Assembly (NCBI GenBank): GCA_910583945.1
Contig: CAJTYF010000005.1
Location: 1,402 to 65,401 of the forward strand
Direction: 5' to 3'
Origin: an uncultured Bacilli bacterium
GTDB lineage: Bacteria; Bacillota_I; Bacilli_A; RF39; UBA660
Length of the DNA: 64,000 bases
Part shown: positions 5,009 to 31,591 of the stretch, in pieces
How the letters are laid out: the number at the start of each line of letters is the position of its first letter
Position numbering within the stretch: position 1 is the first letter of the stretch
The notes under the pieces: generated by a model
Databases searched by the model: none
Told to the model about the DNA's origin: nothing
What the model saw: the letters and a program-made list of their open reading frames with translations, nothing else
Made by a program: the position numbers and the translations under genes

Positions 5009-6268
5009 ATGGAAAAGAAGAAATTGTTAGTTTTTGCAAATTATTTTTATCCAGAAGTGGCTTCTACGGCTCAAATTTTGACTGAATTATGTGATGGCTT
5101 AAAAAAAGACTATGTGATTACTGTCATTTGTTCTGTTCCTTGTTATACTGGAAAAATTGAAGAAAAATATAAAAAAGAAAAATTTTATTATGAAGCGTAT
5201 AACGGGGTTAATATTCTTAGAGTTCGAGTCAAAGAATTTTCAAAAACAAGTAAAAAAAGTAGAATTTTTCATATCTTAAGCTATTTTTTTCATTCGATTG
5301 GAGCGACTTTTAAAGTTGGGAAACAAGATGTTGTTTTTGCCATTTCTCAACCACCAGTATTAGGTGGTATTCTTGGAAATATCGGGCGAATGATTACAAA
5401 AGGAAAATTTATTTATAATATTCAAGATTTTAATCCTGAACAAATTATGGCGGTCAATTATTCTAAAAATAAGTGGCTATTAAAGTTCATGCTGCTGTTT
5501 GATCAACACACATGTAAAAAGGCAAGTTTAGTGATTACTGTTGGAAGAGATATGCAAAAAACGTTAGAACATCGTTTTAAAAATAAAAAGATTCCTAATA
5601 ATAGAGTCATTAATAATTGGACAAATGAAAGTGATATTTATCCTTTAAATAAAGATCATAAAAAAGTAATGGAATTTAAGAAAAAAAACAACTTAGAAAA
5701 TAAATTTATTATTATGTATTCTGGAAATTTAGGACTTTATTATGATTTAGAAAATTTGATTCATTTGTTTTTGAATTTTAAAAATGAAAAAGAAGTTGTA
5801 TTTGCTTTGGTTGGTGAGGGGGCTCTTAAGAAAAAATTAGAGGAAATTGTACGTGAAAATCACGCTGATAATATTACTTTTATACCTTATCAAGATAAAA
5901 AAGATTTGATTTATAGTTTAAATAGTGCGGATGTGCATCTTGTTACCAATGCAAAAGGGATTAAGGGTGTTTCTGTTCCTAGTAAAATCTATGGATGTAT
6001 GGCAACAAATGTTCCGATTTTAGGCATATTAGAAAGGGGTACTGAAGCGTCTCAAATCATTAATGATTCAAAGTGTGGTGTGGTTTGTGAAACCGGTCAC
6101 TATGAAGAAATCGAAAAAAAGTTGAAAATGATTTTAAAAGAAAAAGATTCTTTTATTAAAAAGCATTTGACGGGAAGAAAGTATTTGGAAGAACATTTTA
6201 CAAAAGATAAGTCTATTAAAAAGTACAGTGAAGCGATAGAAAGTGTTTTAAATGGTGATAGAAAATGA
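5009..6268 (+). CDS. GT4-family glycosyltransferase (WcaI/WbuB-like)
   Basis: N-terminal 'KKLLVFANYFYPEVASTAQ' and a C-terminal GT-B block 'MYSGNLG...LVGEG...YGCMATNVPILG'. Confidence 0.85.
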   Translation: MEKKKLLVFANYFYPEVASTAQILTELCDGLKKDYVITVICSVPCYTGKIEEKYKKEKFYYEAYNGVNILRVRVKEFSKTSKKSRIFHILSYFFHSIGATFKVGKQDVVFAISQPPVLGGILGNIGRMITKGKFIYNIQDFNPEQIMAVNYSKNKWLLKFMLLFDQHTCKKASLVITVGRDMQKTLEHRFKNKKIPNNRVINNWTNESDIYPLNKDHKKVMEFKKKNNLENKFIIMYSGNLGLYYDLENLIHLFLNFKNEKEVVFALVGEGALKKKLEEIVRENHADNITFIPYQDKKDLIYSLNSADVHLVTNAKGIKGVSVPSKIYGCMATNVPILGILERGTEASQIINDSKCGVVCETGHYEEIEKKLKMILKEKDSFIKKHLTGRKYLEEHFTKDKSIKKYSEAIESVLNGDRK

Positions 6269-27265: not shown

Positions 27266-28396
27266 ATGAAATTAGAGAAGTTTACAAAAGGTAGTAAAAA
27301 AAGAAGTCAGGCTGTTATTTTTTTCGCTATAGCGGTTTGTTTGCTAGCGGCAGGATTTATTCTTTATCGAACGTTTGCGTTTTATGAAGAAAAAAGAGAA
27401 TTTAATGTTTTGCAAGGAAGGATTGGAGATTTTGATTATGATGTAAAGCTTGCAATAGTGGTTGATGGAGAAAAAGTAGATAAAGTACCTGAACGTGGTC
27501 TTTATAGTGTAGTAAGTACATGTAATGAAGGAGAAGCTTCAACTTGGGATTATAATGCTTGGGCACTATCTATAGAAAATATTCAAACGAATACAAAGTG
27601 TAAGGTTACTTTTACTTCAGGACTCAGTGATACAGAGTATAATAAATACATCGAAGCTGGAATTGCATTAAGAAGAAATACGTATCGAGGAAAAGATATC
27701 ACTAGTTATTATAATGATGGAAGTCTTTATACCATGATCAGTGATGGAACGTTTAAAGATATTTATGTAGGGGATTTTTTTAATGTCAATGGCGTAACAT
27801 GGCTTGTTGCGGACATCGATAATTATTTGCATAGTGGAGATCAAGATTTAACGAAACATCATGCAACGATTATCCCAGCAAAGCCATTAATGAATTTGGG
27901 AATGAATGAAACAGATACCACAGAAGGTGGGTATTATAATAGTAGAATGGCTCAAGAAACCTTACCGAGTCTAGTGGCGGCTGATGGAACAATTGGAAAA
28001 GCTTTCGGTGCTCATTTAATCGAGTATCGTAATCTGTTATCAAATCGAATTAATAAAGATACCATTAATCAAAGTGGAGGAAGATGGGTTGGAGCAAGTG
28101 ATGAATGGGGATGGTATTCAAGAAAAGCTGATTTAATGAGTGAAGTGAATGTCTATGGAACAACAGTGTGGTCATCAAGTGGCTATGATATAGGAATAGA
28201 TAATCGTCAGTATGCAATTTTTCAACTAAAACCAGAGTATATTAATAGTTATGGGACAGCAAGATTTCATTATTGGTTAAAAAGTGTCTCTGGTGCGACT
28301 AGGTTTGCTCATGTCGCCGGTAACGGGAATTCCGGCTACACCTGGGATGGCGCGTCCAACGCGTATGGTGTTCGCCCCCGCTTCCTGATCGGTTAA
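27266..28396 (+). CDS. DGR target (variable) protein: N-terminal signal-anchor, C-terminal C-type-lectin-like variable region
   Basis: TM helix 'AVIFFAIAVCLLAAGFILY'. The C-terminus 'YWLKSVSGATRFAHVAGNGNSGYTWDGASNAYGVRPRFLIG' is encoded by the VR, which matches the three downstream template repeats. Confidence 0.85.
   Translation: MKLEKFTKGSKKRSQAVIFFAIAVCLLAAGFILYRTFAFYEEKREFNVLQGRIGDFDYDVKLAIVVDGEKVDKVPERGLYSVVSTCNEGEASTWDYNAWALSIENIQTNTKCKVTFTSGLSDTEYNKYIEAGIALRRNTYRGKDITSYYNDGSLYTMISDGTFKDIYVGDFFNVNGVTWLVADIDNYLHSGDQDLTKHHATIIPAKPLMNLGMNETDTTEGGYYNSRMAQETLPSLVAADGTIGKAFGAHLIEYRNLLSNRINKDTINQSGGRWVGASDEWGWYSRKADLMSEVNVYGTTVWSSSGYDIGIDNRQYAIFQLKPEYINSYGTARFHYWLKSVSGATRFAHVAGNGNSGYTWDGASNAYGVRPRFLIG
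28285..28379 (+). repeat. DGR variable repeat (VR)
   Basis: 95 nt align without gaps to 29692-29786 (TR3). There are 12 mismatches, and 10 of them sit at template adenines. The homology core 'tctctggtgcgact...gcgtccaacgcg.atggtgttcgccccc' is shared with all three TR copies. Confidence 0.9.
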
Positions 28397-28434
28397 TCCT
28401 CAAATCTGACCCCCTTGTGGGGTCTTGAGGATTA
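28394..28434 (+). promoter_or_regulatory. nested GC-rich hairpin immediately 3' of VR (candidate DGR target-recognition cruciform and/or attenuating structure)
   Basis: 10-bp outer stem (taatcctcaa at 28394-28403 pairs with ttgaggatta at 28425-28434). 6-bp inner stem (gacccc at 28408-28413 pairs with ggggtc at 28419-28424) with a 5-nt loop. It starts at the stop codon. No T-run follows. Confidence 0.6.
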
Positions 28435-28455
28435 AAAAGAGAAGGAGGAATTTTG

Positions 28456-29016
28456 ATGAGTGTTGTAAAAAGTAAAAGAAAGCTTTCAACAATGGAGTTT
28501 TTTCATAACGCTCTTTTGTTAAGAAAGAGCGTTACGGAACTTTTGATGCGTGATTTCGGTGTAAAAGGATTCAAGCGAAATATCAAATTTGTAGGAAGTG
28601 TTGAACATTTTGAACCAGAAGATAAAATATTGGTGGAAGAAGTGTTTGAAAAATACAATATGGGTAGATGTTTTGAAGATGAATATCCTGAGTGGTTGAT
28701 TGATAAAGAAAGAGTTTATTTTTTGGATATCTTGCGAAGCTTGATAAAAAATATTGTAAAAGCGAATACAATTTATCCGGTTAATATGAATGAATATAAA
28801 GAAAGAAGAAGTTATCAAAATAATGCCATTGGGGATTGTGAAGATCTTCTTCAAGAAATGCAATATATGATTTCAATTGTTCCAGTCGATGCTGAAAAAT
28901 ATATGCAATATGTAGAAATGATTGAAAAAGAAATTGCTCTTTTGAAAGGGTGGCGAAAAGGAGATAATAAAATTGCCAGTCGATTAGAAAAGAAAAAAGA
29001 AGAGTCGAAAGACTAA
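28456..29016 (+). CDS. avd: Avd-like accessory variability determinant (basic four-helix-bundle-type protein), unusually long
   Basis: Lies between the target and the TRs. Lys/Arg-rich, predicted all-helical. Strong RBS 'ggagg' 8 nt before the ATG at 28456. The assignment rests on context plus composition, not on a motif I can name. Confidence 0.6.
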   Translation: MSVVKSKRKLSTMEFFHNALLLRKSVTELLMRDFGVKGFKRNIKFVGSVEHFEPEDKILVEEVFEKYNMGRCFEDEYPEWLIDKERVYFLDILRSLIKNIVKANTIYPVNMNEYKERRSYQNNAIGDCEDLLQEMQYMISIVPVDAEKYMQYVEMIEKEIALLKGWRKGDNKIASRLEKKKEESKD

Positions 29017-29039
29017 AAATTTGTGGTATGTAGTAGTGG

Positions 29040-29095
29040 TAATCCGTTTCAAAAATATATGAATTAAGTATAATTCAATTTGATACGGATTTTTT
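29040..29095 (+). terminator. long AT-rich hairpin plus T5 after avd (possible terminator or 5' structural part of the DGR RNA)
   Basis: aatccgt (29040-29046) pairs with acggatt (29084-29090). An inner tgaatt/aattca stem is present. Followed by ttttt at 29091-29095. Confidence 0.3.
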
Positions 29096-29132
29096 GTGTT
29101 CAAAAATATTGGATAAAATTTGTAATCTTGGT

Positions 29133-29227
29133 TGTCTCTGGTGCGACTAGGTTTGCTAATGTCAGCGATAACGGCAATTCCAACAATGGCTGGAACGCGT
29201 CCAACGCGAATGGTGTTCGCCCCCCCC
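29133..29227 (+). repeat. DGR template repeat copy 1 (TR1)
   Basis: Shares both ends with the VR. AAY-rich core 'aatgtcagcgataacggcaattccaacaatggctggaacgcgtccaacgcgaat'. One codon shorter than VR/TR3. Ends in C8. Confidence 0.8.
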
Positions 29228-29413
29228 TGATTCGATATGTTCATAGATAGTAAGACTACGAGTCGATATGAAAATATGGAAGGAAATTTTATCCATCCGA
29301 AAGGTAAAAATAAATTTTGATGTTACTAGATACGTCTAGGGTAACTAAAAACAAAATTGATGGAAGATATATTAGTTTTTTTATAGATGTTGGGTAAAGC
29401 TTGTATAGCTTAG

Positions 29414-29506
29414 TGTTCTCTGGTGCGACTCAGTTTGCTAATATAGGCGGTTGGGGTGATTCCAATAACAACTGGAGCGCGACCAACGCGAATGGTGTTC
29501 GCCCCC
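29414..29506 (+). repeat. DGR template repeat copy 2 (TR2)
   Basis: Core 'aatataggcggttggggtgattccaataacaactggagcgcgaccaacgcgaat'. The most divergent copy. One codon shorter than VR/TR3. Ends in C5. Confidence 0.75.
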
Positions 29507-29691
29507 TGATTCGATATGTTCATAGATAGTAAGACTACGAGTCGATATGAAAATATGGAAGGAAATTTTATCCGTCCGAAAGGTAAAAATAAATTTTGAT
29601 GTTTTTCTAAATACGTTTAGGAACTGTTTACAAAATAATAAAATGGATTGTTATATTAGATAAATTATGGGTAAAATTTGTAATATTGCTT

Positions 29692-29787
29692 TGTCTCTGG
29701 TGCGACTAGGTTTGCTAATGTCAACAGTAACGGTGATTCCAACAACAACTGGAATGGCGCGTCCAACGCGAATGGTGTTCGCCCCCC
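29692..29787 (+). repeat. DGR template repeat copy 3 (TR3), best cognate of the local VR
   Basis: Same length as the VR. Core 'aatgtcaacagtaacggtgattccaacaacaactggaatggcgcgtccaacgcgaat'. By hand count, 10 of its 22 adenines are substituted in the VR. Ends in C6. Confidence 0.9.
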
Positions 29788-29955
29788 TGATTCGATATGT
29801 TCATAGATAGTAAGACTACGAGTCGATATGAAAATATGGAAGGAAATTTTATCCATCCGAAAGGTAAAAATAAATTTTGATGTTACTAGATACGTCTAAG
29901 GTAACTAAAGACAAAATTAACTTAATAAATTAAGAGTTTTAAGTAGAATAGATGG

Positions 29956-29998
29956 TGAATTAAGATTTCTTTTTCCACGCAAATGAAATCTTAATTCA
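29956..29998 (+). promoter_or_regulatory. perfect 14-bp inverted repeat (15-nt loop) between the last TR cassette and the RT start
   Basis: tgaattaagatttc (29956-29969) pairs with gaaatcttaattca (29985-29998). No T-run follows. Located 62 nt upstream of the RT ATG. Confidence 0.5.
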
Positions 29999-30060
29999 AC
30001 ACCTCATATCTTGACTTTGCCTCTTTTCTACTCAAAAGTTTTAATAAAAGGTGAAAGATT

Positions 30061-31248
30061 ATGAATAAAGAAATGAAAATTTTAAGTGATGCCAATCAAT
30101 TGATTGAAGCTTTTAATCAAACTAAAAAGGAAAGTATATGGAAAGAATCTGTACAAAATTATGAAGCCAATTTACTTCGAAATACTTACTTACTAAGAAC
30201 GAGTTTAAGAGATGGGACCTATAGACAAAGAGCCTTTTATGAGTTTACTTTAAATGAAAGAGGTAAAACAAGATATGTGAAATCTATGCATATTACTGAT
30301 CGAGTTGTTCAAAGGAGTTTATGTGATAATATTTTGATTCCTAGACTTCAAAATTATTTGATTTATGATAATGGAGCGAGTCTTAAAAATAAAGGGATTG
30401 ACTTTTCTAGAAAACGATTGGAGACACATTTGCATCGTTTTTATCGAAAAAATGGAAGTAATGAGGGCTATGTTTTACTAATTGATTATAGTAAATTTTT
30501 TGATAATATTCGACATGATAAATTGGCGGAGCTTTTAGAAAAGAAGATTGATTCTCCTGAATTTATGACATTTGTGAAGCAGCTTCTTAAGACCTTTTCT
30601 ATTGATGTGTCTTATTTATCTGATGAAGAATATAAAAACTGTCTAAATAAGCTCTATAATTCTTTGGAACATTCAAAAATTGACCGAAGTTTATTAGTTG
30701 GAGAAAAAATGATGGAAAAGTCAGTAGGAATTGGAAGTCAAATTTCTCAAATATGTGGTATTTATTATCCAACAAGAATTGATAATTATTGTAAAATTGT
30801 TAAGGGCATGAAATATTATGGAAGGTATATGGATGATGTTTACGTAATTCATAAGGATAAAGAGGTATTAAAACAATTATTAAAAGAAGTGGATGAATTA
30901 TCTAAAGAATTAGGATTGTTTATTAATCAGAAAAAAACACAAATTGTTAAATTAAGACATGGTTTTACTTTTTTTAAAATTAAATATAATTTAACAGAAA
31001 GTGGGAAAGTTTTAAAACGATTAGTACCAAAAACCATTACAAGAGAAAGACGGCGACTTAAAAAGTATAAAAAATTAATGGAAGAAGGGAAAATGAGTTA
31101 TAAAGATATCGAACTTGCTTATAAGTCTTGGCGAGGAAATGCTTTAAGGTATCATGCTTATACGAGTGTTAAAAATTTAGATGCTTTGTTTGACCAACTT
31201 TATGTAAAAGAATGGAAAGGAAAGAATGAAGATGAGCTTACTTTATGA
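30061..31248 (+). CDS. DGR-type reverse transcriptase
   Basis: RT motifs 'LLIDYSKFFDNI', 'SVGIGSQISQICGIYY' (the DGR-specific I/LGxxxSQ block), 'GRYMDDVYVIH' (YxDD) and 'GLFINQKKTQIV'. RBS 'aaaggtga' before the ATG. Confidence 0.95.
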   Translation: MNKEMKILSDANQLIEAFNQTKKESIWKESVQNYEANLLRNTYLLRTSLRDGTYRQRAFYEFTLNERGKTRYVKSMHITDRVVQRSLCDNILIPRLQNYLIYDNGASLKNKGIDFSRKRLETHLHRFYRKNGSNEGYVLLIDYSKFFDNIRHDKLAELLEKKIDSPEFMTFVKQLLKTFSIDVSYLSDEEYKNCLNKLYNSLEHSKIDRSLLVGEKMMEKSVGIGSQISQICGIYYPTRIDNYCKIVKGMKYYGRYMDDVYVIHKDKEVLKQLLKEVDELSKELGLFINQKKTQIVKLRHGFTFFKIKYNLTESGKVLKRLVPKTITRERRRLKKYKKLMEEGKMSYKDIELAYKSWRGNALRYHAYTSVKNLDALFDQLYVKEWKGKNEDELTL

Positions 31249-31591
31249 TCAATATCAAAATTTAAAAGAGAGAGATAAAGACACTTATTATTTGTTTCGA
31301 AGTGGGAATTTTTATATTTTTTTAGGAGAGGATGCAGATCGTATTAACCAGTTTATGGTTTTAAAACGAACACCTTTTTGTAAAGAAACTATAAAATGTG
31401 GTTTTCCAGTAAGAAGTTTAGAGGCCTATTTAAAAGTTTTTAAAAATCATGGTCTTACGATTCGAGTTATTGAAAAGGAGGAAAAAAAGAGTATTGAACC
31501 CATTCTTAAAGATTTAAAAAAGTTGGATATTGAGGCGATTACTCCAATTAAAGCTTTAAATATTTTGAAAGAAATTAAAGATTCGCTTTAA
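31226..31591 (+). CDS. stand-alone MutS domain I-like (mismatch-binding N-terminal domain) protein, DGR accessory candidate
   Basis: 'YDQYQNLKERDKDTYYLFRSGNFYIFLGEDADRINQFM...KCGFPVRSLEAYLKVFKNHGLTIRVIEK' aligns by eye with the MutS N-terminus ('[34 protein letters not shown]...[28 protein letters not shown]'). Overlaps the RT gene by 23 nt. Confidence 0.7.
   Translation: MKMSLLYDQYQNLKERDKDTYYLFRSGNFYIFLGEDADRINQFMVLKRTPFCKETIKCGFPVRSLEAYLKVFKNHGLTIRVIEKEEKKSIEPILKDLKKLDIEAITPIKALNILKEIKDSL

Follow-up and report, generated by a model that had tools for sequence, protein, structure and literature searches.

In the textbook DGR one template is held invariant, so that only adenine-encoded positions vary and both scaffold and length stay fixed. 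In Neisseria pilE/pilS and Borrelia vlsE, silent partial cassettes lie beside one expression site, and segmental mosaic replacement occurs by recombination only. DGR cassettes with two or more TRs have been recorded in surveys (PMC6642488), 53 multi-TR cases have been listed, with some VRs hit by more than one TR (PMC11661182), and the crAss-like phage Lera carries TR1-3 paired with VR1-3 (PMC12386605). TR arrays are not discussed by Wu et al. (PMC5758913) or Roux et al. (PMC8144416). The original prediction for the locus described here held that no tandem-TR DGR is known; the multi-TR DGRs in surveys make that claim too broad, but full-text literature searches turned up no account of a single VR being rewritten from a tandem array of TR and spacer.

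We analysed the window, a 64-kb stretch of contig CAJTYF010000005.1 (GCA_910583945.1, uncultured Bacilli bacterium of the gut); positions are those of the window unless a relative's locus is named, and all window features listed lie on the + strand. We consider it likely that a single-template DGR has expanded here into a tandem array of modules and that different modules rewrite one VR. The DGR is chromosomal and sits amid housekeeping genes, with murG, an ftsQ-like gene and queH upstream and rpsB and tsf downstream. Its order is target gene with VR, avd-like gene, three TRs, RT and MutS-like gene.

The target gene (27266..28396) encodes a putative surface protein of 376 aa with a hydrophobic N-terminal stretch, as judged by eye, and a C-terminal VR; sequence searches with the protein gave no match in Pfam, NCBIfam or PDB. 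The VR (28286..28379) takes up the last ~30 codons of the target ORF, the variable codons running roughly from 28310 to 28366. As expected of a DGR, it lies in a coding target with a GC-rich 3' boundary and is followed by a hairpin that is absent from the TRs. This hairpin (28393..28435; 17 bp, interrupted; DNA fold -15.8 kcal/mol, z = -4.3 against shuffles) lies directly 3' of the VR, overlaps the stop codon and resembles the hairpin/cruciform type of DGR target site. Inspection by eye found its stem arms altered with pairing retained in the relative L003, and found no stem of this type in the TR units, which run on into CTGATTCGATA instead.

The accessory gene that follows (avd-like; 28456..29016; 186 aa) is assigned by position only, on the synteny that places it between VR and TR in all relatives. 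Its protein had no match in Pfam, NCBIfam or PDB and no detectable likeness to known Avd, whose family consists of four-helix bundles; a scan of JGI metagenome contigs with it gave no matches, and a single-sequence AlphaFold model was all-helical, of low confidence (pLDDT 56) and too poor for a fold search. The RT (30061..31248; 395 aa; Pfam RVT_1, 1.8e-15) is of DGR type by motifs and by matches: its translation contains IGSQISQ, an instance of the IGxxxSQ of motif 4, and YMDD, an instance of YxDD, and its best PDB match is 8ub7, a 328-aa 'Reverse transcriptase' (E=2.9e-14) that ranks above retron and group II RTs and that we take to be BPP-1 bRT. At RT codon 305 (30973-30975) the window has a private L305F change, with Phe where 8/8 relatives checked have Leu (GFTF[L/F]K). 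Given L305F and a VR allele that is identical across 7 contigs, the window copy of the DGR may be slow or inactive. The RT 3' end overlaps by 23 nt an ORF that consists of MutS domain I only (31226..31591; 121 aa; Pfam MutS_I, 1.7e-12), is kept after the RT in all relatives and matches the MSL accessory class, whose members are found together with avd in DGRs (Wu et al. 2018, PMC5758913).

Where a DGR would be expected to hold a single invariant TR, Tandem Repeats Finder located one tandem array at 29110-29920 (period 281, 2.9 copies, 82% matches), in agreement with the three tandem, non-identical units of ~280 bp that had been predicted. The conserved ends said to be shared with the VR recur as stated: the end motifs TCTCTGGTGCGACT and GGTGTTCGCCCCC each occur four times in 64 kb, in the VR and in each of the three units, against 1.1 and 0.1 occurrences expected by chance. 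Unit 1 (29111..29391) comprises a leader, TR1 (29134-29224; 375-aa type; 20 adenines, 8 AAY codons and a C8 tract), a spacer block and an A-type tail hairpin. Unit 2 (29392..29668) comprises TR2 (29416-29506; 375-aa type; core IGGWGDS; 19 adenines), a spacer block and a B-type tail hairpin with compensatory changes, and unit 3 (29669..29920) comprises TR3 (29693-29786; 376-aa type; 22 adenines and 9 AAY codons), a spacer block and an A-type tail. In frame, TR1 translates to ..ANVSDNGNSNNGWNASNANGVRP, TR2 to ..ANIGGWGDSNNNWSATNANGVRP and TR3 to ..ANVNSNGDSNNNWNGASNANGVRP. All three frames are free of stop codons, and TR3 and the VR exceed TR1 and TR2 in length by one codon, so the predicted translations and lengths were reproduced throughout.

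The spacer blocks (29228-29322, 29507-29601 and 29788-29882) are 99-100% identical among units, while TR cores share 72-81% and tails 46-71% identity; the common spacer was correctly foreseen, at a length of ~98 nt that we measured as 95-96 nt. The predicted likeness of the flanks of units 1 and 3 likewise holds, as these share tail type A, and unit 2, with type B, departs after GATGTT. Spacer-tail hairpins lie at 29322-29352, 29601-29632 and 29882-29912, built as GTTAC-TAGA...TCTA-GTAAC in type A and as CTAAA...TTTAG in type B, with an ATACG loop conserved in both; the last unit 5' of the RT always has a type A tail. Pairing in the tail hairpin is kept through compensatory changes between A tails, B tails and L003, with pair 140:147 being GC in six sequences and AU in four.

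Several smaller elements accompany the array. A slippage-prone poly-C tract marks the 3' boundary of the TR, exactly where homing has its limit, and measures C8, C5 and C6 in the three units (29217-29227, 29499-29506 and 29779-29787), C5 in the VR and C4 in some relatives. After the avd-like stop codon, positions 29041-29095 hold a 7-bp stem (AATCCGT/ACGGATT) with an AT-rich loop of ~37 nt and then a T-run, and a weak promoter-like site (29080-29107) overlaps the 3' arm of this stem just 5' of unit 1; the element may be an avd terminator or an array promoter. A scan of 28200-30200 for promoters and terminators found no more sites than in shuffled sequence, so that we neither claim nor exclude promoters for each unit. 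Rfam returned one sub-threshold match, to RT-2 RNA in the unit 3 spacer (16.9 bits, E=0.36), which is absent in relatives.

Within the window, the VR is as long as TR3 and has 12 mismatches to it, of which 10 fall at template adenines (P=1.6e-5), and it shows 9 non-adenine or indel discrepancies to TR1 and 14 to TR2; this pattern points to TR3 as the current template of the window VR. Treating the window VR as a TR1/TR3 mosaic, as an explanation for its two non-adenine mismatches (GGG AAT against GGT GAT in TR3), did not reduce the mismatches and was rejected.

One explanation is that each array has a single working template, TR3 in the window, and that the other units are decaying by-products of unequal crossing-over in the spacer. 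The fit of the window VR to TR3 alone agrees with this, as does the variation in copy number among strains; among the alleles compared, none traces to the window TR1 core, and unit 1 in the arrays of the relatives L008, L020 and L022 has lost 1 nt at its 5' end and is altered at two positions in its 3' end. Against it, no A-rich unit has lost its open frame or the integrity of its spacer, each retains 17-22 adenines and 6-9 AAY codons, and the VRs of one sister strain trace to units 2 and 3 with mismatches that fall almost entirely at adenine sites. We accordingly regard a single working template as unlikely and set out the sister-strain alleles in full.

One strain is represented by four assemblies from different ENA samples (L013-L016; ERZ15143728, ERZ14864011, ERZ14863991 and ERZ14864641) on contigs of 30,924 or 30,927 bp. 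Over 11.1 kb the four sequences match throughout apart from locus positions 6027-6097, where they show 11-26 pairwise differences, all in the VR, and they carry one and the same three-unit array. With VRs and units laid out in 27 codons, the L015 VR differs from unit 2 at 13 adenine sites and at no other position, so that in relatives up to 13/13 mismatches fall at adenines (P=2e-10), and it shows 12-18 non-adenine discrepancies to units 1 and 3. The L016 VR likewise traces to unit 2, with 10 adenine-site changes and 1 non-adenine change, and both of these VRs are one codon shorter. By contrast in template, the L013 VR has the length and the GGCGGTTGGGGT core of unit 3, from which it differs at 13 adenine and 4 non-adenine sites, all four of the latter within codons 1-6. 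For L014, VR and unit 1 are identical (no adenine-site and no non-adenine changes). As flanks and array are the same and the VR alleles trace to different units, these genomes indicate that one strain rewrites its single VR from different units, with VR length shifting by a codon. The prediction that alternative templates feed one VR is in this way supported for the lineage; for the window's own array, use is visible for TR3 only, and the claim does not extend to its TR1 and TR2. All comparative data are short-read metagenome assemblies, in which a VR consensus could be chimeric.

Other relatives carry VRs that combine units, with the 5' half from one and the 3' half and length from the other. 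The L010 VR joins unit 2 over codons 1-13 (with the GGC private to that unit at codon 10) to unit 1 over codons 14-27, which reduces the non-adenine mismatches to 2, from the 7-8 seen with either unit alone; this one allele is present on four contigs. The L020 VR joins unit 1 over codons 1-17 to unit 2 over codons 17-27, with 1 non-adenine mismatch against 6-8 for single units. Four non-adenine markers of unit 1, which looks degenerate, recur in the 5' half of this VR, and the target protein P0130 ends in GIRP rather than GVRP, which corresponds to the ATT marker that the 374-type unit has in its 3' end; both tell against the dismissal of such units as decayed. L008 and L022 are one strain: over 6,965 bp they differ at 10 positions, 9 of which belong to the VR, and the template of both VRs is the window TR2 core (first codon GTC there, TTC in the window). 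Apart from that first codon, the same core is also the template for the VR 3' halves in L010 and L020.

The target proteins give a similar picture. We found 480 target homologues, and within 90%-identity clusters their differences lie mainly in the last ~28 residues; ongoing diversification is confined to the VR among L013-L016, and nearly so between L008 and L022. In four such clusters the VRs are 26, 27 or 28 residues long, with non-adenine signatures that match unit types; cluster 2, for example, holds eight alleles that are 'WxASR' 26-mers and five that are 27-mers.

Some TR slots are poor in adenines (8 adenines, 0-1 AAY codons) and contain mosaic, VR-like sequence. Unit 1 of L013 (L013:6860-7050) has 8 adenines and no AAY codons, and can be accounted for by joining two A-rich core types, with 14 changes at adenine sites and 2 elsewhere. 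Unit 2 of L001 (L001:470-560) is of the same kind, with 12 adenine-site and 5 non-adenine changes, and the sole TR of L002 (L002:5715-5815) is A-poor and departs from its own VR at only 2 adenines. Because A-rich units, compared with one another as a control, differ mostly at non-adenine positions, the adenine-site changes in these slots indicate that mutagenised VR-type sequence has entered them, presumably by cDNA homing into a TR or by VR-to-TR conversion. Such slots may be damage tolerated through redundancy or a functional archive. A slot that has lost most of its adenines could store a variant, and the L014 VR matches the adenine-poor slot of the L013-type unit 1 exactly. On this basis we raise, as a doubtful though conceivable extension, that the array is read-write: mutagenised mosaic VR-type sequences would occasionally be written back, and a slot would keep a selected variant that could be reinstalled almost unchanged.

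The same observations bear on a second explanation, in which scaffold and length switch by RT-independent gene conversion from silent TR cassettes, in the manner of pilS/pilE or vls, and the DGR adds adenine mutagenesis only, templated by whichever unit is like the VR. Mosaic junctions do fall in blocks common to units, and VR-like sequences in TR slots mean that information also moves without new mutagenesis. The L014 VR, with 0/8 adenines changed where other alleles have changed 50-70% of template adenines, is what such conversion would produce, but it is the sole faithful case and could reflect assembler mis-threading through the repeat. Elsewhere, transfers carry 10-14 adenine-only substitutions each rather than faithful copies free of base-specific mutagenesis. 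The whole-length alleles of L015 and L016 join a new scaffold to heavy adenine-only mutagenesis, as a single homing event gives, the halves of the mosaics are each adenine-mutagenised relative to their own unit, and the flanking homology is only about 24 and 22 nt. We judge conversion alone to be an improbable source of the switching, somewhat more so than a single working template, though it may contribute to the mosaics.

We therefore return to the reading that several modules rewrite one VR, for which we propose the following course. A single template would have given rise to a tandem array of two to four non-identical modules, each a short leader, an AAY-rich TR of ~90 nt and a structured non-coding spacer. 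In the BPP-1 prototype, Avd binds to the non-coding segment 3' of the TR, on which processive, template-primed cDNA synthesis depends (PMC6182149). No other part of the unit here is as well conserved as this downstream segment, and since the duplicated unit includes a segment of this Avd-binding type, each module looks like a self-contained DGR RNA. We infer that RNA and cDNA are made from every unit: the complex of RT and Avd-like protein would start on any module and yield adenine-mutagenised cDNA, which would home to the one VR through the common GC-rich 3' end and the post-VR hairpin. The 5' junction could form at any block common to the modules, so that homing would replace either the whole VR or only its 3' part; partial replacements with such junctions agree with the tendency of the remaining non-adenine mismatches to cluster at the 5' end of the VR. 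Successive homing from different modules, in a proposed order of events, would produce the mosaic VRs. Three layers of variation would then meet at one site, namely adenine mutagenesis, choice among non-adenine scaffolds and a length of 26, 27 or 28 residues, and unequal recombination in the near-identical spacer would change copy number and move cores between slots.

Scanning with the RT protein recovered this locus from gut MAGs that bear the label uncultured Bacilli or Tenericutes. Relatives with RTs at least 94% identical have arrays of two, three or at least three non-identical units; in L001 (RT 94% identical) the sequence begins inside an array of at least three units. A single TR is present in L002 (RT 86%), L003 (70%) and L004-L006 (about 45%). 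As RT identity of 86% or less goes with one TR, the array is a young, species-level expansion. The IGGWGDS core occupies the B-tail slot in the window and in L010 and the last slot in L013 and L008, and this occurrence in different slots points to unequal recombination within the identical spacer. A search of JGI metagenome contigs with the spacer DNA pattern gave three loci, with L027 set aside as an unrelated satellite-like repeat, and the same pattern had 0 matches in IMG/VR. In L021 (L021:2489-8619), the target and upstream genes are kept, avd, TR and RT are absent, and a 615-aa ORF and an SNF2 helicase follow; its VR allele (FLP[S/N]HGQSGNDWGEASYEV) is nearly invariant in three proteins (P0125, P0129 and P0133) and looks as if frozen after loss of the DGR. 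The Oribacterium relative L005 carries an unrelated group II intron (L005:11437-11662; D1-D4-6, 158.6 bits) ~4 kb 3' of the DGR RT.

Other DGRs are known with remote targets and with TRn-VRn pairings (PMC5758913, PMC12386605), and the original prediction offered as its second option that each TR serves a separate VR elsewhere in the genome. This we hold to be very improbable: neither a second VR nor a further end motif or target paralogue is present in the 64 kb, and the adjacent VR alone accounts for the use of several units in sister strains. That the array is an assembly artefact, in which reads of a mixed population with different single TRs were collapsed or expanded, is hardly credible, since despite a 95-nt identical spacer that is long relative to common k-mer sizes and window-strain short-read contigs that break at both array edges, a three-unit array was assembled identically in four samples and two-unit arrays in several MAGs, distinct leaders and tails fix the unit order, and the VR alleles need more than one unit within one strain.

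For the window genome, the number of units lacks independent confirmation, as the same-strain short-read contigs break exactly at the array edges; very similar arrays in other assemblies have two, three and at least three units. The window-strain contigs L017, L018 and L028-L030, from Logan and other short-read assemblies, end right after the avd-like gene or start 192 nt before the RT, and when the window RT and target proteins were looked up by exact match, every contig obtained stopped at an array edge. Arrays of this kind are systematically lost from short-read assemblies and probably under-counted in DGR surveys.

A natural DGR thus appears to escape the single-template limit by adding scaffold residue choice, loop length and mosaicism to adenine mutagenesis. 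Estimates of DGR sequence space would need revision, and survey pipelines, which discard 'redundant' TRs, should not do so. DGR-based directed evolution would gain a natural design in which multiplexed templates serve one target. Whether TRs are truly protected from homing is a further question posed by the adenine-poor slots, and if the read-write reading were true, the locus would be a mutator and a heritable archive of past solutions at once.

The locus resembles the canonical DGRs of Bordetella phage BPP-1 (mtd/avd/TR/brt), Treponema (TvpA) and Legionella, with which it shares an IGxxxSQ and YMDD RT, a non-coding AAY-rich TR, a VR that lies at the 3' end of the target ORF and departs from the template at adenines, a hairpin beyond a GC-rich 3' boundary, a small accessory gene between target and TR and a functional non-coding segment 3' of the TR (PMC6182149). 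Whereas those DGRs have one invariant TR, here there are 2-4 non-identical TR-spacer modules, non-adenine positions and VR length vary among alleles of one strain, and some TR slots are not invariant but adenine-mutagenised. Multi-TR cassettes (PMC6642488, PMC11661182, PMC12386605) also have more than one TR per RT; where these have been analysed, however, each TR has its own VR or was filtered out as redundant, and none is described as a tandem of TR plus spacer or comes with population evidence that several TRs act on one VR. The DGR subclass with avd and MSL (PMC5758913) shares the MutS-domain-I-only ORF after the RT and the accessory gene before the TR, but no TR arrays are recorded for it, and the avd-like protein here is longer (186 aa) and lacks an Avd family match. 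The arrangement of partial cassettes beside one expressed site recalls pilE/pilS and vlsE; unlike in those systems, transfer here leaves the adenine-specific mark of reverse transcription, and the cassettes have an RT gene beside them.
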